From a virus, in the IMG/VR virus record IMGVR_UViG_3300028127_000003: a stretch of 64,000 nucleotides of DNA; one strand, 5' to 3'. Below the pieces are notes generated by a model. The model was not told the DNA's origin. It saw only the letters and a program-made list of their open reading frames with translations, and made no database searches. How positions within the stretch are numbered: the stretch's first letter is position 1; every line of letters starts with the position of its first letter. Positions 3,300 to 22,039 of this stretch are shown here, one piece after another. The translations under genes and the position numbers were made by a program.

Positions 3300-4501
3300 A
3301 ATTCTACTGGTTTTTCTACTGATCTTTTATTAACATTGTTAATAGCTTCAAAGAGATCATTGTTAACAACTTCTGGCGCGTTGTGTAATTTAGCTAATCT
3401 TAAAGAGTTTTTTCTAAACTCTTCTCTTCTTTCGTTATTGTTTGCTAATTCTAAAATCTGTGGAATAGAAGCTGCAATATCTTCTTTGTCTACGAAGATT
3501 GCAAAATCTTCAAGTTCTATGAAAGGAACTCCTTCTGTTCTGTGAATAACGTGAGTTCCCCAGTGTTTGTCAAATAGTGGTATAGTTCCCGCTGCAATAA
3601 CCTCACACATTGCATATTCAATCATTGAACCATAGAGTCTTTCTGGTAAGTTAAAGAATTCTGCACCGAACATTGATTTTCCAAGTTCTGCCATTCCTTC
3701 TGCTAAATTATAAGGCCCATACATATACATTCTGTCTTCGACTTGTGGATATGTAACAGGGTTTTTGATTTCATGAACTTCAAAGATATCTTCTCTTAGA
3801 GTTTTTCTATCTTCTTGTAAAAACATAGGAAGAGCTCCAATAGATCTTTCAACTCCTCTACATTCTGTTACGAAATTATTACCTTTCAATAGTTCCATAA
3901 TATCGAACATTCTAAAAGGATCTTTAAATCCAGCAAATCTTCCAAAGTATGTAGTTCTTCTTTCTTGTTCTTCAACTGGAACCACAATATTAGACCATGC
4001 ATCATAGTCATAAGGATTAAGATTCATTTCGATTAATGGAGTATCAGGTGCATGTTCTCTTAATTTATTTGCAAAATTAGATCTTGCAGAATAGTTGAAC
4101 ATAGCGTCCATTGATTTCATGATTTCCCAATACTTATAATTCTTTGCTAAGTTTGCAGTGTTATGATCTAAGCAGTTTCCTATTTTAATAGGATTTTCTA
4201 AACCATAAATACAGTGCTCAATAAAATCTTCGTTGAATTCATCTCCTACTGATTTATGCGGATACGATGTGTAATATACTACATCACTTTTTTCAAGTTC
4301 TTTAGCGATATTAGGAATATCCTTTCTTTTAAATTCAGTGCAAACAATATCTGTAGTTTTATGGCGAGGCCATTTCTTTTCTACCGCTGCATAAATCGTG
4401 GCATCATGGCCTTCTTTTATAAGCCAATTATAAAATTCGATTGTGTGTCTTGTGAGTCCACAACCTTCAACTCCTTTTGCTAATACTAATGCTATTTTCA
4501 T
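3278..4501 (-). CDS. DNA alpha-glucosyltransferase homologue (T4 Agt-like GT-B glycosyltransferase)
   Basis: N-terminus MKIALVLAKGVEGCGLTR..E...W.IKEGH mirrors T4 Agt MRICIFMARGLEGCGVTK..E...W.IKNGH. Also GR...FK..F.MF, CRGVERS, LSKSMFG-type segment and EYAMCEVIAAGTIPLF (T4: EYTHLELGACGTIPVF). Confidence 0.8.
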   Translation of the reverse strand: MKIALVLAKGVEGCGLTRHTIEFYNWLIKEGHDATIYAAVEKKWPRHKTTDIVCTEFKRKDIPNIAKELEKSDVVYYTSYPHKSVGDEFNEDFIEHCIYGLENPIKIGNCLDHNTANLAKNYKYWEIMKSMDAMFNYSARSNFANKLREHAPDTPLIEMNLNPYDYDAWSNIVVPVEEQERRTTYFGRFAGFKDPFRMFDIMELLKGNNFVTECRGVERSIGALPMFLQEDRKTLREDIFEVHEIKNPVTYPQVEDRMYMYGPYNLAEGMAELGKSMFGAEFFNLPERLYGSMIEYAMCEVIAAGTIPLFDKHWGTHVIHRTEGVPFIELEDFAIFVDKEDIAASIPQILELANNNERREEFRKNSLRLAKLHNAPEVVNNDLFEAINNVNKRSVEKPVELKTDSLF

Positions 4502-4851
4502 ATTTGTGATCCGTGTTTTATGTTAAATCCTCCATGTTTTCTGTATGATTGGTCTTCTTCTCCTATTTGTATTTCTCCTTCATATCCTTTTTCAGATGAA
4601 TCAGAATATACGTCCATTTCGGAATAGACTAAATCTCCTAATGCGTTATGTGTTTCTTCGTCATTTACCCCGATATCAGTTCCTACTAATTCGTCCATTC
4701 CTTCCAGCTCCCAATAGTTTTCTGCTAAGTATTGAACGAATTCTTCTTCGGTTGCTCCTTTATAATTAGGGAATTTTTCAGTGTCTAATGTTACGATAGG
4801 AGTTGCTTCGGCAATATATCGATACTCGGTTCTTCTTACCTGTACTTTCAT
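4498..4851 (-). CDS. Hypothetical acidic protein (117 aa)
   Basis: ORF overlaps the agt start and abuts the upstream gene; no motif recognised. Confidence 0.6.
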   Translation of the reverse strand: MKVQVRRTEYRYIAEATPIVTLDTEKFPNYKGATEEEFVQYLAENYWELEGMDELVGTDIGVNDEETHNALGDLVYSEMDVYSDSSEKGYEGEIQIGEEDQSYRKHGGFNIKHGSQI

Positions 4852-5118
4852 TTATTTTCCGTTTTCGTAATTATCTAAACCTTGAATGTATGCTACTGCA
4901 TCTAAGAGATTATCTCTTTTATGATTGTAACTTTCTCTTGAAAACTTAAGAGCAACTAATGCTTTAAACATATCAGCGCCACTTACATCATGGCCTGTCA
5001 TACCTTTAAATATTAGGGCAGCTCTGTCCATGCCTTCTGAAAAAGGACCGTAATTACGATCCGCTTCTTCACTCCTGTTGTTTACAATTTCGTTTGCTTC
5101 TTCTAAGATACTTTTCAT
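4852..5118 (-). CDS. DUF6378-like small helical phage protein (nucleotide-metabolism associated)
   Basis: ILEEANEIV..R...YG.F......A.I.......D....L..LK.SR......DNLLDAVAY pattern. Confidence 0.6.
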   Translation of the reverse strand: MKSILEEANEIVNNRSEEADRNYGPFSEGMDRAALIFKGMTGHDVSGADMFKALVALKFSRESYNHKRDNLLDAVAYIQGLDNYENGK

Positions 5119-5134
5119 AAGAATGTGTTTAATT

Positions 5135-5163
5135 ATTATACTCTATATATGCGTTTTGTTTAC
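5135..5163 (-). promoter_or_regulatory. Putative class-2 promoter GTAAAC-N17-TATAAT
   Basis: Exact 17-nt spacer; upstream of the DUF6378-hyp-agt unit. Confidence 0.6.
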
Positions 5164-5319
5164 GGCTAATTTTTCTAATTTTGATTCTACTAGAATTATT
5201 AGATCTTCAATTCCTTCGTTATACGCGAATTGTGTTTCGTGGTCCATGTTTGCATACTTAATTTCATCTGCTGCATTGGTTAGTAGATTAACCAATACCT
5301 TTACGTCTTCTTTGCTCAT
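5143..5319 (-). CDS. Small hypothetical protein (58 aa, not in the ORF track)
   Basis: Hand translation MSKEDVKVLVNLLTNAADEIKYANMDHETQFAYNEGIEDLIILVESKLEKLAVNKTHI*. It fills the gap between two genes and has an A-rich upstream sequence. Confidence 0.6.
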   Translation of the reverse strand: MSKEDVKVLVNLLTNAADEIKYANMDHETQFAYNEGIEDLIILVESKLEKLAVNKTHI

Positions 5320-5326
5320 CTTTGTT

Positions 5327-6268
5327 TTATTTTAGTAAGTTTTCTATTCCTAATTCTTCGGCGAAAGCAACTGTGATATCCTTTAGCAGCTTTACATTTT
5401 CTTCTGAGAAATCAGTGTTATCAAATTTAAATGAAATTGTTTTATCATTTGCACCTGTGCTTTCTTTTACGAATTCAAAACCTGGAACTTTAGATTTTAT
5501 ACTATCAATTATCTTTCCTGTTTCATCTATGATTCTAGTAAGTCCATGATCTTTAACTAAATATCCTGATATTTTAATTCCAAGGTCATGGTTCTTTTGA
5601 TTAATAACCCATTCTATACCCAATCTAGAACCAGTATAAGCCTTTCCAATATAAAGGTATCTACTGCGGTGTGGTAATTCTTTTCTATTTTTGAATCCCA
5701 TTTCAGATGAAGCGACTTTCATCCATTTTAAACCAAGCTCTTCAAGCGAAGCGAGTTTAACTGAAACCTTTTCCTTCTTTTCTTCTATTCCATATACATC
5801 TGCAAAATAACCTTGATCATTGAACCTTAGATGTATAGCATAAGAATCTTCCATCTTAGAAAATTCATTAAGATAGGGTGCATCGAATTCTTTAAACGCA
5901 ATTGCAAATGAATATACTTGTTCGTAATCCTGTTTAAGTCTATTGGATTTAAGATAGAACTGTTCATGGTGATCATTGTCCCATTTACCCTTTTGAGATT
6001 GACTCATCACTTCAAAATAATACATCTGTCCTTCGTCTTCAAACGTAAGATCAGCTCTTTTGGTTGCCATTCCAATTGTGATAGGTGTTTCTAATTTTCT
6101 GTCTATATCTTCAATGCTGGATAAACCACATGCTTCGATTACAGTGTTCATTTCTTCTTTGCCAAAAAAGGCTTCTACGAATTGAGTTTCTCTATTACAT
6201 TCATAGGCTGAAAATACATCTGTTAATGTGTGGTCGTTGGTTTTAATTCCTTTCGAATATCTTTTCAT
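5327..6268 (-). CDS. Putative PD-(D/E)XK-fold nuclease (NucS/DUF4268-associated-like N-terminal domain)
   Basis: KRADLTF...YYFEV..QS...DNDHHEQ resembles the RADI...IENQ...DHDHLGQ core of that group. Confidence 0.4.
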   Translation of the reverse strand: MKRYSKGIKTNDHTLTDVFSAYECNRETQFVEAFFGKEEMNTVIEACGLSSIEDIDRKLETPITIGMATKRADLTFEDEGQMYYFEVMSQSQKGKWDNDHHEQFYLKSNRLKQDYEQVYSFAIAFKEFDAPYLNEFSKMEDSYAIHLRFNDQGYFADVYGIEEKKEKVSVKLASLEELGLKWMKVASSEMGFKNRKELPHRSRYLYIGKAYTGSRLGIEWVINQKNHDLGIKISGYLVKDHGLTRIIDETGKIIDSIKSKVPGFEFVKESTGANDKTISFKFDNTDFSEENVKLLKDITVAFAEELGIENLLK

Positions 6269-6295
6269 TTATTGCTTTGTTTATTAATTACTATA

Positions 6296-6303
6296 CTAAT
6301 ATA
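6296..6303 (-). promoter_or_regulatory. Putative host-sigma-type element TATATTAG
   Basis: One mismatch to the Bacteroidota -7 element TAnnTTTG. It directly follows a terminator, and the same arrangement occurs at 19854. Confidence 0.35.
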
Positions 6304-6305
6304 AC

Positions 6306-6334
6306 AAAAAAACCCGAGATAAAAAAATCTCGGG
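6306..6334 (-). terminator. Rho-independent terminator
   Basis: Perfect 8-bp stem CCCGAGAT/ATCTCGGG, 6-nt loop, then T7 on the minus strand. Confidence 0.7.
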
Positions 6335-6363
6335 CTGCTTTTTTTCAAAAAAAGTGCAATGTT

Positions 6364-6579
6364 TTACAAATCTTCTGGAAAATACTTGTCAAGTGCTTCT
6401 AACTTATCATCAGCGTCAACTAACATTGATAAAGCTTCTTCTGCATTTTTATAGAAATCACCAGTTGAGTGATCTCCAATACCAGATCCTTTATTTCCTA
6501 AAAGATCTAAAGATAAAAGTGCTTTTGATTTTTCAGCTAAGGCACTAGCTCTTAGCATTTCGATTAATTTCTTATTCAT
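6364..6579 (-). CDS. Small conserved-type phage hypothetical protein (71 aa)
   Basis: GIGDHS..D....EE.L..L.DA.DKL..L..YF pattern recalled from marine phage small proteins; operonic with rmlB. Confidence 0.6.
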   Translation of the reverse strand: MNKKLIEMLRASALAEKSKALLSLDLLGNKGSGIGDHSTGDFYKNAEEALSMLVDADDKLEALDKYFPEDL

Positions 6580-7505
6580 AATTGAGTTTCTAGTAGTTTA
6601 AATGTTTCTTCTTTTAAAAATTCTTCAAAGGATAAAGGGATCATTTCTCCTAAAATAGCATTTACCTTTGAGCTATTAAGTGCGTATCTTCTATCATGTC
6701 CTAGACGGTCTGCTACAAATTCAAATTCAGGAGTTTTGCCCATGATGTTTCCTATCATTTCAATAACTTCTAAATTAGTGTATCTTTCCTCTGAACCAAT
6801 ATTAAATACTTCGTTAATTCGGTCTGACATCATTAAGTTATAAATAACTAAAGTGTTGTCTGTTACGTCCATCCATTCTCTAACTTGCTTTCCATCTCCA
6901 TAAACAGGAATTTTCTTTCCTTCTTTAATAGAGCGCATGATAGTTGGGATAAATTTTTCTTTATGTTGATGAGCACCATAATTGTTACATGTTCTGGTAA
7001 TAATATATGGAAGATCAAATGTTCTGTTAGCTGAAAGGACTAGCATGTCTGATGATGCTTTAGTCGCCGAATAATAAGAAGAAGCTACTAGCGGAAATTC
7101 TTCATCCGCTACTACGTCCTTACTAATGTCGTCCATGTCGCCGTAAACTTCATCTGTAGAAATATGAATAAATTTTCTAAGATTAGGGTTTTGTCTAGCA
7201 CACTCTAAAAGATTGAACGTTCCTTCAACGTTTGTTCTAACGAAAGGTCTTCCGTCTTTAATAGAATTATCTACATGACTCTCAGCTGCGAAGTGAACAA
7301 GGAAATCATATTCTCCTAGATCTTCTACTGTTACTTCGCAAATATCTTTCTGAATTAATGTTACTTTAGTTTTAATGTTATTTGGATTTGCAGCATAAGT
7401 CATTTTATCAACTACTACAATTTCTGCTGTTGGGTTTTTTCTACCAATCGTGTTTACAAATTCAGATCCTATAAATCCAAATCCACCAGTTACTATTATT
7501 CTCAT
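6576..7505 (-). CDS. rmlB: dTDP-glucose 4,6-dehydratase
   Basis: GGFGFIGS, DKMTYAA, FAAESHVDNSI, ISTDEVYG, YSATKA, TRTCNNYG and DRLGHDRRYA motifs. Confidence 0.92.
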   Translation of the reverse strand: MRIIVTGGFGFIGSEFVNTIGRKNPTAEIVVVDKMTYAANPNNIKTKVTLIQKDICEVTVEDLGEYDFLVHFAAESHVDNSIKDGRPFVRTNVEGTFNLLECARQNPNLRKFIHISTDEVYGDMDDISKDVVADEEFPLVASSYYSATKASSDMLVLSANRTFDLPYIITRTCNNYGAHQHKEKFIPTIMRSIKEGKKIPVYGDGKQVREWMDVTDNTLVIYNLMMSDRINEVFNIGSEERYTNLEVIEMIGNIMGKTPEFEFVADRLGHDRRYALNSSKVNAILGEMIPLSFEEFLKEETFKLLETQL

Positions 7506-12281: not shown

Positions 12282-15200
12282 TTAATGTAAGGAATCATGT
12301 GCTAATTCATTAGCTAAGTCTGGATTATCATCTGTGAAATCTGATAATTCTTCGTCAGTCATTTCTTTTCCATTAGAATATTCACCATAACTAAAGAATG
12401 CATCTGTGAAATCTGGATAATCTTTCATATCAACATCTTCCATTTCTAATGAACTAATATCTACTTTCTTTCCTTTAAATTTAATATAATTAGCTTCGTT
12501 AATAAAAGATTCTAATGTTAAACTAACAACTGGTTTAATTCCAGTTAATATTCTTTTTCCAAATTTAGAAAGACCAATTCCATTTTCACTTACTGTAAAG
12601 TATTTAGAATTTCTTCTCATCCATCTTTTATTATCGATTGATTTTTCTTTTAGAATATTATTGAATTCTTCTTCTGTTAATACACCATCCGCTAATGCCT
12701 CGATCATTGCGTTTCTGACTTTAGCAGTTCTACCTGAAGTTTGTGCAGGATGATTATCGGTATATCTTCTTTTTATTTGAATTTTAGATTCTCTAAGACC
12801 CGGTTTCATTACGTTTAATTCCCACCACTGTTCTAATTGGTGATAAATATTTGCACCCATGTTTGAAATCATGAAGTCAATTACATCATCATAATTGTCT
12901 TTTTCATCTTGATAAAAACCAGGAGTATCGATATATTCTTTACCCATTATCTTTCTAACTGCTCTTTCTGGCATAGCATCGATTTCTTTTAAAAATTCTT
13001 CGAAATCTTCATCGTTTTTAAAACCCTTAGCTTCAATAACCATTGATTCCATTAGGCCAATAGCAATCTCTCCAACTTCTCTATCGCCGCCGTCAACATA
13101 TCTTTTGTTAAGTATTGCAAATTTAAAACCATCTGCTTTTATCGTATACATTGGCATCATACTATCACTATAGTCGTATTTGTATTTACCTGCTTTTAAT
13201 TCTTTACCGATTGCAAAGAAATCTTTAGCTTTACCTACTAAATCTGCAAGATTATCTAAGTGGTCACCGGCGTCGTCCTTTTCATTAACTAATGATTCAT
13301 AAACTCCTTTTTCAATGTTCTTGATTAAGAGTTTAGCACCCTTCTTGTCAAGTTCATTTTGAATAAAGTCCATCATTTCGTTGGGATCTTCAGCATCTAT
13401 ACCAAATTCAGATGCTAAGTTTTGATATGCATCAAATTCCATATTAGAAATAGTGTCTTCTAAGTCTGCATACACATCTTCATTAACTGCTGATTCTACC
13501 ATTACTAGCCCTATATCCTTATATGCTATTTCATGCTCTCCACCGTCTTGATCTAGTGCAAATACTGATTTATCATGCCACATTGCAGCATTGTCATCGT
13601 TATTAGAATCAGGATTATAAATGATATATTCTTTTCCGTTTCCGGTTTGAATCATTGCATCATCTGCATCTCCTAATTTTTTTAATAATGACTTTTTAGT
13701 ATACCTTTCTTCAACAGCTTCACCTGACGTATATTCAAAATCATTATATAGTGCCTTTAACCATTCTAAAAACTCTGGAGTTTTCTTCATTACTTTCTTA
13801 TGTCCGTATTCTTTAAAGAATTCTTTCTGAAAAGTATCAAATGATTTGTGATTACCTATCATTTGGTGAATGTCAGACATAACACCCTCACTGATAACTA
13901 ATTTTACATCTTTGTTTTTACCAGCTACTGCATCATCTAGTTCATTTGTAAGAGCTTTCTTTTTTGCTGTTAAATCTATTAGCTGCTGTCTAGTTGCTGC
14001 TTTCTCATCACTTCCATCTTCCGCAGCGATGTATATCTTTACAATATCTTTCATCTTATTAACTGTTTCTCCAAATTCCTTTGAAATCTTGTTAATAGAT
14101 CTAGCTTCTAATATATTAGATTCTTCAATGTATTCTCCTAATTCAGGATCGTCCCATCCATTAGGATCGGCTAATACTGATTGTAAATCTTCTCTTGAAC
14201 CTGTCATTTCAACTTCTGGCCAATTGCCACCAGGGCCGTTCATTGTTAAAACTTTCATTTTAACATTATATTTCTTTAAAAGCTTTTTGAGTGTTTTTGA
14301 TTTAGGATCTATTGCATCCATTACTACAGTAGCTTCATTTAAATTTTCGTCTAGCTTATCAAAGAATCCACCATGTTCACTTTGTAAATCTTCACCATAC
14401 TTGTCGTCCCATATTTTAGCTAATTCATCTTTAGTAATTTTACCTTTATATTTTCCCATGATTTCAACATAGACACTACCATATTCATATTCAAAATCTT
14501 CACCATAAGAAAAATCCCATGCCTTTTCAACATCTTTAATTGTAAGCTTTTTGGCTTCAGTAACCTTTGATTCATACCATCCGTTTTCGTAATCGTCATC
14601 ATCTTCATAATCATCATACTCAGGTTCTTGATACCATGATTGATTTGGATCAGATTCTGCTTCTTCAGTAAAGTCATGTCTTTTCCAATTAAATCTTGGA
14701 TCTTCAACTAATGCAGGGAATAATGTCTTTTTCTTTTTATCTTTGGTCTTTATTTTACCGAATGCTAAATCAATACCAAGTTGTCTTAATTCTTTAAATG
14801 AACCTTTCATTGTTTTAACATCTTCTTCAGTATATCCATTCATTGTAGCAACAAGATCATAATAATCCATTCCACCAAATTCACCATATCCTTCATAATC
14901 CTTTTCCGTCCACTTGTTACCCATATTATCATACATAAATACTGTAATCATGTTCTGTCTTTCAGAACCTATTTGTGTGTTTGTATCGGATGTAAGCCAT
15001 GAAAATTGACCTTCAACTATCATCTGTTCATGTAACAATTGAGCACCAGTCGTTACAATGTTTAAATAGCTTTCAGGAATTCCATTTACAAAGTTATGTA
15101 ATTCTGGTTCGAAATCTGGCATACCACATGCATATCTTGGATATGTTGCTCCTTCTGTATTTACAAGAATACTCATTCCATAATACTCTCCAAGCTCACC

Positions 15201-15500
15201 TGATTCAGTGTTACAATATAATACAAATACCTGTGGCACTTGAACTTTAAAGTTAGATTGTAATGGATATTCGTTATGACATCCTAATTCTTTAGTAGTG
15301 TATACGTCTAAGGAATGTAATTCTTTATCATATTTAGTTAATTCTCTATATGGAATAGAAGCTCTTTGGTTAAATAGATCTCCCCAATAAGAAGGCTTTC
15401 TCAAGGAATATTTCCCAGAAACCTTTTTGTATACTTTATATAAATCAACGTTTTCGTTCATTGAATTTACAAAGCTTTCGAATGTTTTTTTAGTGCTCAT
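12282..15500 (-). CDS. Putative head-packaged polyprotein of ~12 small domains
   Basis: MSTKKTFESFVNSMNE N-terminus. Repeated linkers EQMIVE, ESKVTE, ENLNE, ESNILE, VISE, ESAVNE, ESLVNE, ESMVIE, ESFINE. Modules include GQFSW..D...YEGYGEFGGMDYY and D.KDYPDFTDAF, which resemble stand-alone small phage proteins. Confidence 0.6.
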   Translation of the reverse strand: MSTKKTFESFVNSMNENVDLYKVYKKVSGKYSLRKPSYWGDLFNQRASIPYRELTKYDKELHSLDVYTTKELGCHNEYPLQSNFKVQVPQVFVLYCNTESGELGEYYGMSILVNTEGATYPRYACGMPDFEPELHNFVNGIPESYLNIVTTGAQLLHEQMIVEGQFSWLTSDTNTQIGSERQNMITVFMYDNMGNKWTEKDYEGYGEFGGMDYYDLVATMNGYTEEDVKTMKGSFKELRQLGIDLAFGKIKTKDKKKKTLFPALVEDPRFNWKRHDFTEEAESDPNQSWYQEPEYDDYEDDDDYENGWYESKVTEAKKLTIKDVEKAWDFSYGEDFEYEYGSVYVEIMGKYKGKITKDELAKIWDDKYGEDLQSEHGGFFDKLDENLNEATVVMDAIDPKSKTLKKLLKKYNVKMKVLTMNGPGGNWPEVEMTGSREDLQSVLADPNGWDDPELGEYIEESNILEARSINKISKEFGETVNKMKDIVKIYIAAEDGSDEKAATRQQLIDLTAKKKALTNELDDAVAGKNKDVKLVISEGVMSDIHQMIGNHKSFDTFQKEFFKEYGHKKVMKKTPEFLEWLKALYNDFEYTSGEAVEERYTKKSLLKKLGDADDAMIQTGNGKEYIIYNPDSNNDDNAAMWHDKSVFALDQDGGEHEIAYKDIGLVMVESAVNEDVYADLEDTISNMEFDAYQNLASEFGIDAEDPNEMMDFIQNELDKKGAKLLIKNIEKGVYESLVNEKDDAGDHLDNLADLVGKAKDFFAIGKELKAGKYKYDYSDSMMPMYTIKADGFKFAILNKRYVDGGDREVGEIAIGLMESMVIEAKGFKNDEDFEEFLKEIDAMPERAVRKIMGKEYIDTPGFYQDEKDNYDDVIDFMISNMGANIYHQLEQWWELNVMKPGLRESKIQIKRRYTDNHPAQTSGRTAKVRNAMIEALADGVLTEEEFNNILKEKSIDNKRWMRRNSKYFTVSENGIGLSKFGKRILTGIKPVVSLTLESFINEANYIKFKGKKVDISSLEMEDVDMKDYPDFTDAFFSYGEYSNGKEMTDEELSDFTDDNPDLANELAHDSLH

Positions 15501-15520: not shown

Positions 15521-16600
15521 TTAAACTCGGTTAGGCTTTATTTTATATTTAAATTTACCTTGTGTAATAGAATATATTTGTAATTCGCTAGTTTTTCCAG
15601 GTAATTTCTTGTAATAGTGAAAAGCTACTATTTCATGATCTTTAGACTCTATAAAAAGGAATGGAGTAGGTATATCTCCTACTGCTGAAATTACATCGTC
15701 TTGTATTTCAGTAAATGTTCTAACGGAAGGCTCAGTCTCTATTATACTTTTAATTTTTTCTGCAGTTTTAGAGTCACTTAGCTTTCCTAATTCTACGTCA
15801 TTAAATTTAATTACTAATGCGCCGTTATCTTTATCTCCAGGACCTATTTTAAAATCTCTTTCACTAGAAGAAAGGGCCTGAATATCTGTCTTAGTTAAAT
15901 TTTGAATATGCTTAAATCTTTTTCCACCTACAGTTCCCCATTCATTTATCCAACCTCCACCGGCAGCCATATCTTTACCATCTCCGTCCGGGTTGATTTC
16001 TTCAATATTATATTTTACTGCGTCATATAATGCCGTTAACTTCGGTACATAAGTACTATTAATTCCCTGGTGTTTTGCACCTGTTCTCCAATTTTGTAAC
16101 ATGCCCTTTGACATTTGAGCTTCTTTTAACTCACATTTACCAAGGGGTGGTTTAATTGGTGACCACCTTTCATTATATAATTCTAAGTCAGTATCGGCCG
16201 CACCTCCACCTATTTTTATATTTTCTACAATATACGCTAGCATTATTTCTCCAGCACCAATTCCATTATCGTCTCTTCCAATATTAAACAATTCGTTTGC
16301 TTCGCTTTTATTTAACATTAAATATTGAAAAACTACTCCGAATGTATCGTCATCCATTTTAGAAAGCCATAACCTGCCATCAGGTTGTTGTTTAACATCC
16401 TGTGTTGAAGTAAACTTAACACCTTGCCATGGACACTTATTCTTTTTAAATGTTCTATTAATTGAATTAAATAAATTCTGTTGGGCAGATTTACTTCCGG
16501 TCGTTGCAACTCCAATATAGGATTCTATAATTAACGCTTCATTTTCAGCGTTGGTTTTTGCAGCACTATGTAGTGCTCTTTCAAAATCGTACCTATCCAT
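15521..16600 (-). CDS. Putative PD-(D/E)XK-fold nuclease-like protein
   Basis: GIGAGEI.L....GG..DTDL....CELK gives a plausible E...D...ExK catalytic set; N-terminal ALIIE site. Confidence 0.4.
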   Translation of the reverse strand: MDRYDFERALHSAAKTNAENEALIIESYIGVATTGSKSAQQNLFNSINRTFKKNKCPWQGVKFTSTQDVKQQPDGRLWLSKMDDDTFGVVFQYLMLNKSEANELFNIGRDDNGIGAGEIMLAYIVENIKIGGGAADTDLELYNERWSPIKPPLGKCELKEAQMSKGMLQNWRTGAKHQGINSTYVPKLTALYDAVKYNIEEINPDGDGKDMAAGGGWINEWGTVGGKRFKHIQNLTKTDIQALSSSERDFKIGPGDKDNGALVIKFNDVELGKLSDSKTAEKIKSIIETEPSVRTFTEIQDDVISAVGDIPTPFLFIESKDHEIVAFHYYKKLPGKTSELQIYSITQGKFKYKIKPNRV

Positions 16601-18464
16601 TGTTTTCTAAAAATTGTTTAAATGTTAATAATGATTCAGCAACTTCATTTGATTCTGAAGTACCTACTGAATCTTCTAATTTTTTCTTAAGTTCGCCATA
16701 CATTTTATGTAATGCTTTGGGTGTTGTTGACTTAAATAATCCTTCATCTCCGTCTAGCATTGCGTTTCTAACCTGAGTCGCTGAAATATTATTGTCTGTT
16801 CTTGGAATTTCAAATAATCCAAAATCACTCCTAACTCCAAGATCTTCTCTATAAGAATCTTTATTTACTTGGAATCCGTAAGTTTTCATTCTATCGCTTC
16901 CTGTTCCCCATAATACGGGTTCATAAGTTGGTCTCATTGCATTGAACATTGTATCAATACCTCCGGTTGGAATTACAAAGATTTCTTTTAAGAATGGATA
17001 TTGTTTTTGAACCGCCTTAAACATATCTAATTGTGTCTTCTCATCATAAGGTCTTTTAAATGCATCTTCCTTTTTCTTATTCTTTGCTTTTACTAATAAA
17101 ACAACCACAGGATATCCATTTTCTTTGTGTATAGTTTCTAATACTTTAGCATGTCCAAGTGTAAATGGTTGGAATCTACCAACAAACATATTTACTAATT
17201 CTCCTCCTTGTTCAGGATGATCTACTTTAAGTGCTTCATTTAAATTAACACTTGTCTTTACTTTATTATGTAATATGAAATTATTAAAGTCGTATATGGA
17301 ATTTTCATCGGTATTCTCTACAAATACTTTCTTATCTATAGTTTCTACTATTTGATTTAAATGCTCTAACATTTCTGCATTTATGATATCGCTTTCCTTG
17401 CTTCTCTTTTTTCTAAAAGAACCTAAAGTTATTTTAAATAATTCTGCAAGTATTTCGTTTTCAACATAAGAAAGAGTGGTCTCGTTCTTAATGTATTTAG
17501 TATTTAGTTTAAAGGAATCTGAATCTGCAAAATCAGCTGATTCAAAGTTAACACCAATAAACTTAGCAGAGTGTTCTTTAACATACGTATTAAACATCAC
17601 TGACATTAATTCAATATATCTCCAGTCTGCTGTTTCTTCATTTAGTTGAATGTCTTTCATTTCAAATGTAGAAATAAATTCAATAAGACCAGCAATAGTA
17701 ATTTGATACATGTGGCTTGATCTCTTATTTTCACTAACAGTTCTTGTAAAATCTTCTAATTTAAAAGATCTAGATTTTTTCTCATCAATAAAAGAAACTA
17801 TTAATCCGTCAATTTCTACTTCAAAGTCTTCATTTAACGTAGGAGAAACTGCATTTGGATTAAATGTCTTAATCATCTTTTGAGTGAAAGGTAATCTTGC
17901 ATCTGTATTTGGATCATAATCAAATGCTTCAGAAAACTCCTTATCTGACATAGATAAAACACTTATTAATTCTTCTTTTTGCATTTGAGATAGCATACCA
18001 TCAAACACAATGCTAGGTCCTTGAACCTCTAATATCTTTGCCCATTTATTTAATATAATTGGATCGCTAATTGTTTTTCTAATCTTACCTGACTCATTCA
18101 TAGTTTGAATGTGCGTAAGTATTAAATTGTTTTTAGGTAGTTTAGTATATTTATATTCTGACACGTTTAATTCAGGTAAATATTCAAAACCAAATTTCCA
18201 ATCATGTGGCATTTGTTCCTTTATACTAGGATCTAAACTTTGGATGTGCTTGACACCTGTTTCATATAAACCTACTATTGTTCTGTCTATCATGTTCATT
18301 CTAGAATCTCCAGATTTGTAATATTCAAATTTAGTCTGGTTTCTTCTAACGTGAAATGAAGCTCCTTGTATTTTTTCAGTTACTAGAACCCTGCTATTCA
18401 ACATATCTTGAAATGCATTGATATTAGTTTCCTGAAATACTTGTCTTAGTTTTTTAAGTGCCAT
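16593..18464 (-). CDS. Fusion: ligase-superfamily nucleotidyltransferase plus class I (T/H)xGH nucleotidyltransferase (NMNAT/cytidylyltransferase-like)
   Basis: N-half: TEKIQG (motif I), FGFEY, EIDGLIV, SFKL. C-half: FVGRFQPFTLGH and NISATQVRNAM. C-terminal LTFKQFLE. Confidence 0.65.
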   Translation of the reverse strand: MALKKLRQVFQETNINAFQDMLNSRVLVTEKIQGASFHVRRNQTKFEYYKSGDSRMNMIDRTIVGLYETGVKHIQSLDPSIKEQMPHDWKFGFEYLPELNVSEYKYTKLPKNNLILTHIQTMNESGKIRKTISDPIILNKWAKILEVQGPSIVFDGMLSQMQKEELISVLSMSDKEFSEAFDYDPNTDARLPFTQKMIKTFNPNAVSPTLNEDFEVEIDGLIVSFIDEKKSRSFKLEDFTRTVSENKRSSHMYQITIAGLIEFISTFEMKDIQLNEETADWRYIELMSVMFNTYVKEHSAKFIGVNFESADFADSDSFKLNTKYIKNETTLSYVENEILAELFKITLGSFRKKRSKESDIINAEMLEHLNQIVETIDKKVFVENTDENSIYDFNNFILHNKVKTSVNLNEALKVDHPEQGGELVNMFVGRFQPFTLGHAKVLETIHKENGYPVVVLLVKAKNKKKEDAFKRPYDEKTQLDMFKAVQKQYPFLKEIFVIPTGGIDTMFNAMRPTYEPVLWGTGSDRMKTYGFQVNKDSYREDLGVRSDFGLFEIPRTDNNISATQVRNAMLDGDEGLFKSTTPKALHKMYGELKKKLEDSVGTSESNEVAESLLTFKQFLENNG

Positions 18465-18474
18465 ATTATATTAT

Positions 18475-19845
18475 TTATCTTCCGTACTTTATGATTCCCA
18501 TCAGCTGATTGATAGCAGCAAAAGTACCTGTTAGTTTCATAGTCTTTCCTTTATATACAAAAACTATTCCTTCAGTTGGTATGATAGATTCTACTCCTCC
18601 AATTCTATCTAATCTCTCTAGTTCTTTCATTACCTTTTCGATCTGAGTAACGCTTCCATCTTTTTTGATCTTTTCAGATTCTGATCTAATTTGATTATGT
18701 AGTCTTTGCATCTCTTTGTCTGGATTTGCAGCTACAAAATTAGAAGCATTCATAAGAATTATAGACCCTAGTTCTAAAAATAAATCTTCAAACGGTCTAA
18801 TGTTTTCTTTATATTTCTTTTTAACATCTTCTTTGTCAAATTTCTTAACAGAAGCAGCTTCATCTTTTCCTATCTCCTTTGCAAGTGATCTCATATTTAA
18901 AGACTTTTTATCTCCATAAGCCCATCTTAATAATAAACCTTCCTTATAGTCTTGTTGTAAATCTGGGAAATTTGCATCTATTGTTTCTCTCCACCACATT
19001 TCATGATATCTAGAAACTTCGTCACCGTCTGTTAAGTTATAACGATCTCTTAATTTTTCAATCTGCTTTATAAATTTAGCTTGATTTTTATCAAAATTAA
19101 TATCTTTACCTAGTTTTAAAATCTGAGGAGGAATTATTGTAAATGTCTTTTGAACATCGGCATCTACTTCCTTTAAAGCTTTGACTAATTCTCCTGCTAT
19201 TTTTCTAGATCCTGTAATATTACCATTCCCATCAGTTTCTTGAATATCGTGAAATTGAAGAACATCTCTTTCGTAATAGATTACATTTGGGTTTTTAGAA
19301 TAGATTAATTCTATATTTATAAAATCTTTACCGTCATTAAATATGGACTGATCTTTAATTTTTGGAAGAGCTTCATTTAGATCTTTAGCTGCAAACACGT
19401 ATGTTTCTCGCACTAAAGGTACCTCATGCTTTTCAAACATTTCTATAATACCGTCTAAATCAACGGGACTAATTAATTGACCTTTATTTCTAGAAAACAT
19501 CGTAACTCCGTTTTTTACGGTTGCTAATAGATTTTGACCGTCTGTTTTTTCAGTGGCTACCTCTTCAAAGTTTAATTCTCCTTGAAGACCGGACGTTACG
19601 ATCTTTTTAAAATCTGCGAATGTTAAATCTTTTTCATCGAAAGGATGAGACATGTGACCAGCTGCACCGCCTTCTAAGATTAATTCTTCTTTAAGTGTAT
19701 TGTATTTTTCAACGATATATTCGTCAAATGATAAAACTTTACTCTTATTTTCACTCATATAATGTGCAACATATTCCTCTCTGGTCATGCCTTGTGCATC
19801 TGCGTGATGTTGAATAAAATCTACAAAGTTGTTATTTAGTTCCAT
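18475..19845 (-). CDS. Ligase-superfamily (KxDG) nucleotidyltransferase-like protein
   Basis: ATEKTDGQNL (motif I), INIELIY, LQFHDI, TEGIVF and MKLTG (motifs IV/V); LILE-GGAAGHMSHPFD N-terminal region. Confidence 0.6.
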   Translation of the reverse strand: MELNNNFVDFIQHHADAQGMTREEYVAHYMSENKSKVLSFDEYIVEKYNTLKEELILEGGAAGHMSHPFDEKDLTFADFKKIVTSGLQGELNFEEVATEKTDGQNLLATVKNGVTMFSRNKGQLISPVDLDGIIEMFEKHEVPLVRETYVFAAKDLNEALPKIKDQSIFNDGKDFINIELIYSKNPNVIYYERDVLQFHDIQETDGNGNITGSRKIAGELVKALKEVDADVQKTFTIIPPQILKLGKDINFDKNQAKFIKQIEKLRDRYNLTDGDEVSRYHEMWWRETIDANFPDLQQDYKEGLLLRWAYGDKKSLNMRSLAKEIGKDEAASVKKFDKEDVKKKYKENIRPFEDLFLELGSIILMNASNFVAANPDKEMQRLHNQIRSESEKIKKDGSVTQIEKVMKELERLDRIGGVESIIPTEGIVFVYKGKTMKLTGTFAAINQLMGIIKYGR

Positions 19846-19864: not shown

Positions 19865-19898
19865 AAAAAACTTGACCCGGAAAAATCCAGGTCAGTTT
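19865..19898 (-). terminator. Rho-independent terminator
   Basis: TGACCTGGA-TTTT-TCCGGGTCA stem (one G-U pair) followed by T6 on the minus strand. Confidence 0.65.
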
Positions 19899-19912: not shown

Positions 19913-22039
19913 TTATAAATATCTATCGATAAATTCTTCTTTGCTACCAACAAATGATCTAGTCTTTGGGCCGAAAAGAACAATCTCAGCACCTTCTGAT
20001 TTAAGCCAATCTGCAACTTTTTGAGCTTTTTTCTTATCAGCTGATAACCATACTGTGTCAAATTCAGGACCATGAGACCTTTGCATTACAATACCTCCTT
20101 TTTCATTTGTAAATTTAAACTTATCTCCAAGAGCAACACTTACTTTAATATTTTTATCAAAATTCTTTTTATGATTCTTAAAAGAATATGCTAAAGCACC
20201 TGAGTAACTTTTAGTGTCAGTTGTAAATTCATCTAAAGATGTAGTAGTACCTTCATAAATATTTGATTCAAATGCTGGAACTAATCCAGTTTCTCCGTAG
20301 ATATCTGCCATCATCCATTTTTTAGAACCTTCATCCCATAAATAAACGAATTCTGCACCACCTTCGTAATTTGCATCTTTAATATATTTGTTAATATTCT
20401 TAACATTACCTTTCATCAGATTAACATCTCCGCCATAGAAATTAATTTTCTTAACGTCTTTATCTAAACCTGAATTATCTCCATTTTTAAGAACAAAATC
20501 TACATTTTTACCACTTTTAAAGGTTGATTTAATAATAGGCAACATGTTTTCAGGATATGAATCATAGTGAGTATATACTGAAGTAATATTTCCTTTCTTG
20601 TCTATTTTACCAAATTGACCTCTAGTTCCTTCATTAATTACATAATTGATTACTTCGTTAAATTTAGATTCTTTTAAAGAAATTTCTTCTTCAGTTAATT
20701 GAAACTTAACTGATTCTTCTACTGCGTTAAATCCTGCTAATAATTTTTCAGCAAGTTTAGATTCACCAATAGATTCTAAATATAGAGCAGTGCCTTCAGC
20801 AACTCCAATACCTGACCATCCGGCAGCATTTGAAATTCTAGAATAATACTCATCTAATATCTGTGATATTTTCTTTGCTCCTACTATAATAGCTTGTTTA
20901 CCAAGAGTTAAAGGATTAACAGTAACACTTCCTAATCTTCCTTTGATAATTTTTTCAGTAGCTGTTCTTTCTCTATGGAAATTAGCATCAGTTAATGCTT
21001 CAGCGTAAATATATTTAATAGCTCCTAAGTGAGAAATTTTATCAGCTGTTAAGCTTCCTAGTTCTGCAAATATTTTATTGTATTGAGTTAATACTTTCTT
21101 TGCATCTCTTTTATATTTAATATCTAAGGCCTCATTCATTAATGATTCTCCTAATCCCCAGTAATTTGCGTGATCGTATTCAACTGGGAATATACCTAAA
21201 TCACCTTCATCACCTTCTTCACTTTTAACAATTTTAGCAAGATAGTAATCTCCCTTTGCAGTATCTTCATATCCGTATGAATCTGCATCTGATCCCATTT
21301 CTTTTTTAAATTGCTTTGATATCTTTCTCCAATTATCGATAGCGATTATTTCAACTTCGCTTCCAATTGAATTTTCAGTAGTATCTCCTACTTTAAATTT
21401 AGCTTTTTCAGTAACTAAAGATTCTGAAAATTCTTCAATATGTTCCATATCGATTTCATCTTCTCCCTTTAATTCTTTTTGTACTTCTTTAGACTTTACT
21501 AATTTTGAAAGATCTTTCATAGTGATTTCTCCATCAATGAAGTCAGCTAGTATATAGTATTGATTAGAAGAATATCCTTCACTGTCTCTAAAATCACCAA
21601 TTTCTTCAATTGCTGCTTTAGTAACGGTCTTAGCTTCAGTAACTAAAGATTCGCTTAATGAATTTCTTAGACCACAGTGTACGCATTCTACCGTTCCGTC
21701 CTTGTCAATTTGCTTATATAAATGTCCTTTTTTATTAGTACACTTTGGTTCGTCTGATTCAGTAACTTCTTCTGATGCAGTAACATCTTCTACCTCTACT
21801 TCTATTTCAGCTATTTCTTCTTCTGAAACATCTCCAAATATTTTTGAGATAATTGATTCTTTCTGATCTTCTTCTAAACCTTCGAAAGAAGTTAATCCTA
21901 ATTCATCTAGAATAGCAGCTATTTTACCAACTGATTCTTGTCTTTTTAAATTGTTTTCTTCTCTAAGTTTACTAACAGATTCCTGTTTTCTAATCTCTGT
22001 AAACGATTTAAATGAAGAAATTTTATTAACTTGTGCCAT
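19913..22039 (-). CDS. Putative head-packaged modular protein (708 aa)
   Basis: ISSFKSFTE N-terminus; linkers ESLVTE (x2), ESLMNE, VINE, ESNIYE. One module has C-x5-H...CxxC; another TRGQFG..SVYTHYDSYPE resembles a common small phage protein. Confidence 0.55.
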   Translation of the reverse strand: MAQVNKISSFKSFTEIRKQESVSKLREENNLKRQESVGKIAAILDELGLTSFEGLEEDQKESIISKIFGDVSEEEIAEIEVEVEDVTASEEVTESDEPKCTNKKGHLYKQIDKDGTVECVHCGLRNSLSESLVTEAKTVTKAAIEEIGDFRDSEGYSSNQYYILADFIDGEITMKDLSKLVKSKEVQKELKGEDEIDMEHIEEFSESLVTEKAKFKVGDTTENSIGSEVEIIAIDNWRKISKQFKKEMGSDADSYGYEDTAKGDYYLAKIVKSEEGDEGDLGIFPVEYDHANYWGLGESLMNEALDIKYKRDAKKVLTQYNKIFAELGSLTADKISHLGAIKYIYAEALTDANFHRERTATEKIIKGRLGSVTVNPLTLGKQAIIVGAKKISQILDEYYSRISNAAGWSGIGVAEGTALYLESIGESKLAEKLLAGFNAVEESVKFQLTEEEISLKESKFNEVINYVINEGTRGQFGKIDKKGNITSVYTHYDSYPENMLPIIKSTFKSGKNVDFVLKNGDNSGLDKDVKKINFYGGDVNLMKGNVKNINKYIKDANYEGGAEFVYLWDEGSKKWMMADIYGETGLVPAFESNIYEGTTTSLDEFTTDTKSYSGALAYSFKNHKKNFDKNIKVSVALGDKFKFTNEKGGIVMQRSHGPEFDTVWLSADKKKAQKVADWLKSEGAEIVLFGPKTRSFVGSKEEFIDRYL
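21407..21652. repeat. 18-bp exact direct repeat TTCAGTAACTAAAGATTC (21407-21424 and 21635-21652)
   Basis: Both copies encode the ESLVTE linker and flank one 76-codon module. Confidence 0.85.

Follow-up and report, generated by a model that had tools for sequence, protein, structure and literature searches.

What would a phage gain from two neighbouring genes that both resemble nucleic acid ligases, one of them fused to a nucleotidyltransferase of another kind? The question is raised by a 64,000-nucleotide window (the whole stretch of DNA analysed here) from IMG/VR virus record IMGVR_UViG_3300028127_000003, in which two open reading frames (ORFs) lie on the minus strand with 10 nt between them: ORF2 (18475-19845; 456 aa) and, directly after it, ORF1 (16593-18464; 623 aa). 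An initial annotation, made from the letters alone, had singled out ligase-like strings in both, and these are present as quoted: TEKTDG (residues 98-103) and TEGIVF...MKL (424-438) in ORF2, TEKIQG (29-34) and EIDGLIV...FKL (217-236) in ORF1. The source record (178.7 kb, ~32% G+C, estimated 59% complete) belongs to an uncultured marine phage, a T4-like myovirus; the window carries genes for a ribonucleotide reductase subunit, a split DNA polymerase, an alpha-glucosyltransferase-like protein, primase, gp32, the UvsW helicase, and baseplate and fibre proteins. The answer we favour, and to which we give about an even chance, is that the pair constitutes one small operon encoding an RNA end-joining kit that is delivered together with the phage DNA.

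We predict that ORF2 is a ligase-type enzyme with its catalytic machinery intact and that it represents a new family of covalent nucleotidyltransferases with an RNA-ligase fold. Its AlphaFold2 model (predicted local distance difference test, pLDDT, 88.9; predicted template modelling score 0.81) was compared with 48,161 solved chains by exhaustive structural alignment. The nine best matches were all RNA ligases (Z 9.2-7.0, root-mean-square deviation 3.7-4.8, 160-194 residues), with NgrRnl at Z 9.2, TbREL1 at 8.4, Trl1 at 8.1 and 8.0, and T4 Rnl2 and T4 Rnl1 both at 7.7, values that have to be read with the aligner's own warning that a Z of 7-10 can reflect a shared arrangement only. A Foldseek search of the PDB returned weak E-values (~5e-3) in a list dominated by RNA ligases, and among predicted viral structures the best matches (E down to 5e-37) came from uncultured phages and were labelled “cytidyltransferase-like domain-containing”, followed by annotated viral RNA ligases. 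The ligase alignments comprise ~190 residues but are spread over model residues 60-450, because an all-helical insert (residues 251-415; 18601-19095, on the minus strand like every other feature of the pair), which comes after the motif III/IIIa strands and before motif IV, splits the strands of ORF2. Motif I (19537-19554), in which K100 is the predicted AMP-accepting lysine, is on the strand at residues 98-118, E179 on 175-181, F198/H199 on 195-204, and EGIVF and K437 are on the adjacent strands 426-431 and 434-438, motifs IV and V together forming the segment EGIVFVYKGKTMKL (residues 425-438; 18532-18573). E179, F198/H199, E425-G426 and K437, all of them invariant or almost so, sit on strands in the expected order, and we infer the assignments of motifs III-V from this conservation and strand order rather than from residue-level superposition. 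Across 51 members of the family at 33-90% identity, the invariant residues are G89, E99, K100, D102, G103, R119, F169, G172, E179, Y191, R307, P423, E425, G426, K437, T439, G440 and G450, and the motif I residues E99, K100, D102 and G103 are likewise invariant in 44 long relatives.

ORF2 itself matched no family in Pfam, PHROG or NCBIfam. The Pfam families RNA_ligase (PF09414) and RNA_lig_T4_1 matched neither ORF2 nor ORF1 at E-values up to 1, nor any other protein across the source genome. Matches of the ORF2 profile to the ribosomal protein eS6 (E 7e-4), which are located in a basic helical stretch, were regarded as spurious. A search of 1.84 billion representative sequences nevertheless recovered an ORF2 family of 1776 clusters at 50% identity, 458 of them at E-values up to 1e-30, from marine and freshwater phages with genomes of 37 kb to >600 kb. 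Among the best 150 of these clusters, the homologous 400 residues are nearly always C-terminal in proteins of 400-1900 aa. In cultured phages the family was found in just 3 of 50,697 records, and literature searches yielded no description of an ORF2-type ligase family or of a pairing or fusion of a transferase with an RNA ligase, nor any paper on DUF6267 (a cyanophage family discussed below) or on Microcystis phage Mel-JY01, which encodes such a fusion. What appears to be new here is an RNA-ligase-fold family with both a new architecture and a new partner. With a family known from sequence only, and with a large helical insert and an N-terminal GGAAGHMxHP motif that have no counterpart in characterised ligases, one may ask whether these proteins join nucleic acids at all, or instead nucleotidylate a protein or small molecule, or serve as structural cargo of the head. 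We consider this very remote, since the invariance of the ligase catalytic set across the 1776-cluster family argues for retained ligase-type chemistry.

Prediction and comparison show the fold and its conservation; as the substrate of ORF2 we infer RNA. DNA ligases do occur among the fold matches (ASFV ligase at Z 6.8, T4 DNA ligase at Z 6.0), and both here and in the 462-kb phage LR756500 the pair lies between the UvsW helicase gene and those for primase, gp32 and DNA polymerase. Both observations would suit enzymes that seal nicks in phage DNA or in RNA-DNA hybrids during replication or repair of a modified genome. However, every search ranks RNA ligases above DNA ligases, neither the ORF2 nor the ORF1 model contains an OB domain (as the initial annotation had anticipated) or any other DNA-clamping domain, and the partner domains found in relatives act on RNA ends. 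In addition, a canonical ATP-dependent DNA ligase (PF01068, E 7e-21) is already present at another site in this phage and in two relatives, which makes a replicative DNA-ligase role for ORF2 unlikely and led us to reject it. Overall, a DNA-directed role for the pair seems highly unlikely.

The partner domains are those fused to ORF2-type ligases in the 44 long relatives, for which Pfam identified CTP_transf_like in 26, in each case close to the N-terminus. It also identified a CCA-adding/poly(A) polymerase head, together with the RNA-binding part of that enzyme, in 3, a Zeta/AAA_33 P-loop kinase in 2, an HD domain in 1 and a 2H phosphoesterase in 1. In known repair systems, enzymes of the CCA-adding, kinase, HD, 2H and exonuclease types heal or rebuild broken RNA ends (PMC9503650, PMC7824862). 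Because such RNA-end domains are fused to the ligase in relatives and because the fold matches are to RNA ligases, RNA end joining is most likely the best-supported function, and the RNA-repair theme first suggested for this locus fits these fusions.

ORF1 consists of an Rnl2-like fold, a helical region, a linker and a HIGH-type nucleotidyltransferase, and its model (pLDDT 76.9) accordingly shows two folded parts, with helices from residue 243 to ~380. The first part (residues 1-243; 17736-18464) matches T4 Rnl2 both with Foldseek (2hvr, E 1.5e-7) and with VIA (2hvq, Z 10.1 over 189 residues; 1s68, Z 10.0), so that structure prediction recovers for both proteins the ligase folds proposed from their motifs. 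In ORF1, however, motif I (TEKIQG; 18363-18380) is degenerate, as had been suspected, and across the family it takes several forms that replace KxDG. Among 120 marine relatives it reads EK[IV][SA]AP in 105 (110 with close variants) and EKIQG in 8, K31 being kept in this marine clade and the DG of the motif lost. In the homologue of LR756500 it reads ENLDG (K to N), and in standalone 445-aa homologues of the fold from huge freshwater phages it reads ED[IV]QG, with K replaced by D in 119 of 120. E217 and K235, which belong to the motif IV/V string of ORF1, are not conserved beyond the marine clade either. The variability of motif I, E217 and K235 indicates that the Rnl2-like fold has been freed from the usual constraint of self-adenylylation, and it is reasonable to regard it as a non-catalytic copy. 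The standalone homologues (3926-5266 of locus L003, LR756502; proteins P0391-P0510) gathered 1839 hits and carry a lysine- and glycine-rich tail, and no recognisable neighbours were found for them.

An expectation that did not hold is that the two ligase folds would be detectable paralogues. Neither BLASTP nor comparison of the family profiles gave significant similarity between the ligase-like parts of ORF1 and ORF2, and we therefore do not call the two proteins paralogues. The sole match in the comparison of the two families was to the HIGH motif in N-terminal extensions of ORF2 relatives.

The second folded part of ORF1 (residues 421-600; 16665-17204) is an NMNAT-like HIGH-type (TxGH) nucleotidyltransferase, NMNAT standing for nicotinamide mononucleotide (NMN) adenylyltransferase, and here the initial annotation of a fused class I transferase was borne out. 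Pfam CTP_transf_like (PF01467) matches residues 426-567 (E 8.8e-9), the motifs GRFQPFTLGH (429-438) and ISATQVR (560-566, of which SATQVR, 561-566, had been noted before) are in place, and the best PDB sequence match of ORF1 is NadM (2qjo, E 0.002). By VIA, the closest structures are the M. jannaschii NMNAT (1f9a, Z 13.8), NadM (2qjt, Z 13.3) and PPAT (4nah, Z 12.6). The module might thus be a true NMN adenylyltransferase that restores NAD+, for instance against NAD-depleting defences, with the ligase folds as unrelated passengers in the same cargo. NMNATs are indeed its best structural matches, the wording GRFQPF..GH and ISAT..R is nearest to archaeal and NadM enzymes, and PHROG 3462 (NMNAT) matches ORF1 (E 2e-4). 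Yet the transferase scores far below the cut-offs of the NMNAT equivalogs (29.2 bits against 181.2 for TIGR01527, 26.9 against 397 for NF003786), and PPAT comes within ~1 Z unit of NMNAT. NadV accompanies NadM in every NadM-carrying phage surveyed (PMC9503650) but is absent here: NadV (PF04095) was not found in the source genome (59% complete), and among 20 carrier records it was present in 1; the complete or near-complete carriers G004, G016 and Mel-JY01 all lack it. Moreover, what NADases leave behind cannot be turned back into NAD+ by an NMNAT alone, and a role in NAD+ supply would leave unexplained a near-obligate link to the ligase (26 of the 44 long relatives and at least 20 of 42 distant loci). 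We consequently judge NAD+ rebuilding, which had been put forward for this locus, to be unlikely.

No comparative signal from the family alignments and the gene neighbourhoods, which were taken from IMG/VR loci, is stronger than this association of the ORF2-type domain with a HIGH-type transferase. Of 38 marine loci (at least 57% identity), all 36 that have downstream DNA carry an ORF1-like gene immediately after ORF2, complete in 34 of them, and LR756500 has an equivalent pair, at ~33% identity, that is in identical order and adjoins UvsW. Elsewhere the two functions are joined in one chain. A hidden Markov model (HMM) of the ORF1 transferase matches 39 of 150 representatives of the ORF2 family. 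Of 42 distant IMG/VR loci, 9 carry GRFQPMGxHH...SGTxxR and another 11 a GGFKPLTGAH...ISATxVR module that Pfam missed and that hhalign (probability 93%, E 3e-7) and the protein atlas place among HIGH-type domains, so that the HIGH-type transferase is fused to the ligase in at least 20 of the 42. Minimal proteins of ~600-640 aa comprising a transferase and a ligase occur in Mel-JY01, L086, P0257 and P0261; the one of Mel-JY01 is annotated merely as “cytidylyltransferase like protein”, and that of L086 is encoded in a complete 157-kb genome. A PF01653 match in the Mel-JY01 fusion (E 0.004) covers the general motif I region only and was uninformative as to NAD use. Other arrangements were also seen. 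In L087, an IMG/VR record of 37 kb that is 97% complete, a 1104-aa protein (3937-7251) combines a DEDD exonuclease-like part, a HIGH-type transferase and a ligase domain, and 3.3 kb of this small genome is devoted to the single fusion gene, which precedes the large terminase by 2 kb. In L040 (7377-11616), the Rnl2-like fold, within a protein of 1036 aa, and the HIGH-type transferase, of 375 aa, are encoded by separate genes.

The minimal fusions and the frequency of fusion suggest more than shared delivery, and the two chemistries may be coupled. ORF2-type proteins could be NAD+-using RNA ligases whose NMN is re-adenylylated by the HIGH-type module, or the HIGH-type module could adenylylate the 5'-phosphate ends of RNA so that the lysine-poor Rnl2-like module would just seal. 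Such coupling would agree with the dispensability of motif I across the family of the ORF1 fold and with the family-specific, conserved GGAAGHMxHPFD upstream of motif I in ORF2, NAD-dependent ligases having an NMN-binding element upstream of motif I. On the other hand, ORF2 retains every residue for ordinary ATP-dependent ligation, and a cut at LNE|A would separate the ORF1 modules. E. coli NMNATs, for their part, showed no capping activity on RNA (PMC8131947). We regard coupling of either kind as distinctly unlikely.

If the shared function is RNA end joining, features outside the folded domains hint at how the proteins might reach the cell. In T4, capsid-targeting leaders such as MKTYQEFIAE direct proteins to the head, where gp21 cuts by the rule L/I-x-E. 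ORF2 begins with a leader (residues 1-58; 19672-19845) that includes SFDEYIVE, a stretch similar to the T4 capsid-targeting sequence, and ends in LILE before G59; its pLDDT is low in the blocks covering residues 31-60 (56, 55 and 47) and below 50 at residues 35-38 and 49-56. Close ORF2 relatives have a shorter leader of 25-27 residues, MKIFTNFNEFITE..ESLILE. Across 122 family representatives the site before GGAAGHM follows [LI][LI]xE, with L or I at P4 in 109, L or I at P3 in 119 and E at P1 in 95. ORF1 has no N-terminal leader, but its linker (residues 383-413; 17226-17318), disordered with pLDDT <50 over residues 383-410, contains DFNNFI (392-397) followed by LNE|A (408-411). Among 120 relatives, D[FY]xN[FY][MI] is found in 112 and [LIVM]xE[AS] in 115 (LNEA in 74). 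In a separate comparison, N409 was nearly invariant and E410, A411 and L412 were invariant. At the C-terminus of ORF1, the tag ESLLTFKQFLENNG (residues 610-623; 16596-16637) resembles the linker and the start of a leader. Its TFKQFL recurs as T[FY][EK]Q[FY][ILM] in 111 of 120 relatives, with a further module beyond it in P0144 and P0220. The earlier proposal of targeting or cleavage-like segments in both proteins can thus be kept for the ORF2 leader (LILE|GGAAGHM) and for the ORF1 linker and C-terminal TFKQFL.

Evidence from the source genome and from other phages points in the same direction. The source genome encodes a gp21-type prohead protease (PF03420, E 8.4e-12; G000:C1:132180-132521), and in Mel-JY01, L086 and L087 the transferase-ligase gene is located 1-6 genes upstream of the large terminase. 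T4-like cyanophages encode a DUF6267 protein with a KxDG motif followed by a HIGH-type transferase that starts with M[RK]FxEFIxE and is homologous to the ORF1 domain. Mass spectrometry of purified virions of cyanophage S-SZBM1 revealed this transferase (gene 140; HMM E 4e-6 to the ORF1 transferase, leader MRFRQFIIE) among their proteins (PMC9146016), and a protein annotated as cytidylyltransferase was detected in S-CREM2 virions (PMC10665884). Given the leaders, the LxE sites, the gp21-type protease, the terminase adjacency and the cyanophage virion homologue, packaging of ORF1 and ORF2 into the head and their processing by the protease are plausible. The S-SZBM1 locus (L097, OL473597; 2989-8008) lies in the replication region and comprises genes 142, 141 (DUF6267, with a KWDG motif), 140 (cytidylyltransferase) and 139, genes 142 and 139 being of unknown function. 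Genes 139 and 140 are both in the reported virion proteome (PMC9146016).

Taken together, an RNA end-joining kit delivered with the DNA might operate as follows. Inside the prohead, the gp21-type protease would trim ORF2 at LILE|G59 and split ORF1 at LNE|A411, steps that we propose because of the T4-type head-targeting leaders and LxE sites, and the trimmed ORF2 and the ORF1 pieces would then enter the cell together with the DNA. There, ORF2 would take AMP from ATP onto K100, pass it to the 5'-phosphate end of an RNA and seal the adenylylated end to a 3'-OH, thereby mending tRNAs or other RNAs that host nucleases have cleaved. In ORF1, the Rnl2-like module would act chiefly as an RNA-binding or sealing partner and not as a self-adenylating ligase, and the HIGH-type module would make an adenylylated product, for which the nearest precedent is NAD+ made from NMN.

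Several observations weigh against this scenario. As regards the ligase assignment, to the aligner's warning quoted above must be added that sequence and profile searches against solved structures reach no ligase, and that just 2 of 51 ORF2 relatives reached E 0.001 for PF09414, as weak matches. As regards delivery, both here and in LR756500 the pair sits in a replication block, between UvsW and DNA polymerase, and not among head or structural genes, and 27 of the 122 representatives have C, M or A instead of E at P1 of the site preceding GGAAGHM. As regards repair, no recognisable end-healing kinase, 2H, HD-Pnk or KptA was found in the 59%-complete genome and no tRNA genes in the window, so that a complete repair pathway, of the heal-and-seal kind known from T4 Pnkp-Rnl1 and Trl1, is not visible in this fragment, and in relatives the healing domains are fused to a minority of ORF2-type proteins (kinase 2, HD 1 and 2H 1 of 44). 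To our knowledge, a HIGH-type transferase is without precedent in RNA repair.

The surroundings of the pair give some indication of how it may be expressed. It lies downstream of UvsW and of a 708-aa modular gene, from which it is separated by a terminator-like hairpin (19873-19894, minus strand; a 9-pair stem followed by a T run), and we conclude from this hairpin that ORF2, ORF1 and a following 359-aa ORF are probably a separate transcription unit. The 359-aa ORF (15521-16600, minus strand) overlaps the end of ORF1 by 8 nt and has no family match. Since it was found only in the four closest relatives and in one locus at 32% identity, we do not consider it a core part of the pair. Counts of the T4 late-promoter sequence TATAAATA were at chance level and thus carry no information on timing, and a nucleotide search of phage records gave no match. 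The large genes flanking the locus, encoding proteins of 1072 aa (12282-15500) and 708 aa (19913-22039), both on the minus strand, are mosaics: single modules, such as those at residues 902-988 of the 1072-aa protein and 426-596 of the 708-aa one, turn up again in ORFs of varying length in at least 30 related loci. These modules are shuffled among relatives, and ORF2 and ORF1 stay constant. Outside the window (G000:C1:174838-175407 and 177099-177479), the PF01068 DNA ligase is situated ~1.7 kb from a third, 158-aa CTP_transf_like ORF, so that this phage has a further place where a ligase and a transferase are neighbours.

RNA ligases are a core phage counter-measure against host tRNA-cutting nucleases and also workhorse laboratory reagents. 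The ORF2 family would add to them 1776 clusters that have no Pfam model and are near-absent from cultured phages, with an unusual build: the fold is split, the N-terminal motif is new, and an NMNAT-like partner is almost constantly present. If the leaders and cut sites work as they do in T4, repair enzymes would be delivered ready-made with the DNA, which would widen the set of phage proteins known to be injected. Should the transferase adenylylate 5'-phosphate RNA ends, it would represent a lysine-independent route to RNA ligation.

Compared with characterised systems, each part of the locus combines familiar and unfamiliar features. The transferase domain of ORF1 shares with archaeal and NadM NMNATs, including phage NadM, the fold, the GRFQPF..GH and IS.T..R motifs and a length of ~180 residues. 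It differs in that HxGH is TLGH and in that a lysine-rich loop takes the place of the GSxQ/N segment that follows strand 2, and, unlike NadM systems, ORF1 has no Nudix partner domain and its genome and complete relatives no NadV. T4 RNA ligase 2 (gp24.1) resembles ORF1 in the fold over residues 1-243, in the helical region that comes next, and in the spacing from K31 to E217 of motif IV and K235 of motif V, whose counterparts in T4 Rnl2 are K35, E204 and K225/K227. Motif I, however, is EKxHGxN in T4 Rnl2, EKIQGAS in ORF1 and EKISAPS in most relatives, with the lysine absent in the wider family, and ORF1 has one lysine in motif V and is fused to a HIGH-type transferase. The closest parallel in gene order is the cyanophage pair of a DUF6267 protein and a cytidylyltransferase, in which, as in ORF2-ORF1, a KxDG protein (S-SZBM1 gene 141; PF19782, E 4e-130) immediately precedes a HIGH-type transferase. 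In the protein atlas, ORF2 lies close to clusters in which DUF6267 is present in part, but PF19782 matches neither ORF2 nor its relatives and the comparison of family profiles is not significant (E 0.22), and an assignment of ORF2 to DUF6267 was therefore not adopted and remains a lead only. With the internal proteins and Alt of T4, the pair and its relatives share leaders (such as MKIFTNFNEFITE in close ORF2 relatives and MRFRQFIIE in S-SZBM1), LxE at module borders and a gp21-type protease gene, whereas the cargo here would consist of large enzymes and multi-module proteins of up to ~1900 aa. Finally, ORF2 has in common with the RNA ligases NgrRnl/Rnl5, TbREL1, Trl1 and T4 Rnl1/Rnl2 the nucleotidyltransferase fold, a KxDG motif I, a putative motif IV (EG) and a putative motif V lysine, in the usual order and with no OB domain. 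Unlike these enzymes, it matches no Pfam or PDB profile, has a ~165-residue helical region inserted within the fold, ahead of motif IV, and not appended at the C-terminus, bears the family-specific GGAAGHMxHPFD, and forms, across its family, the C-terminal module of long multi-module proteins.

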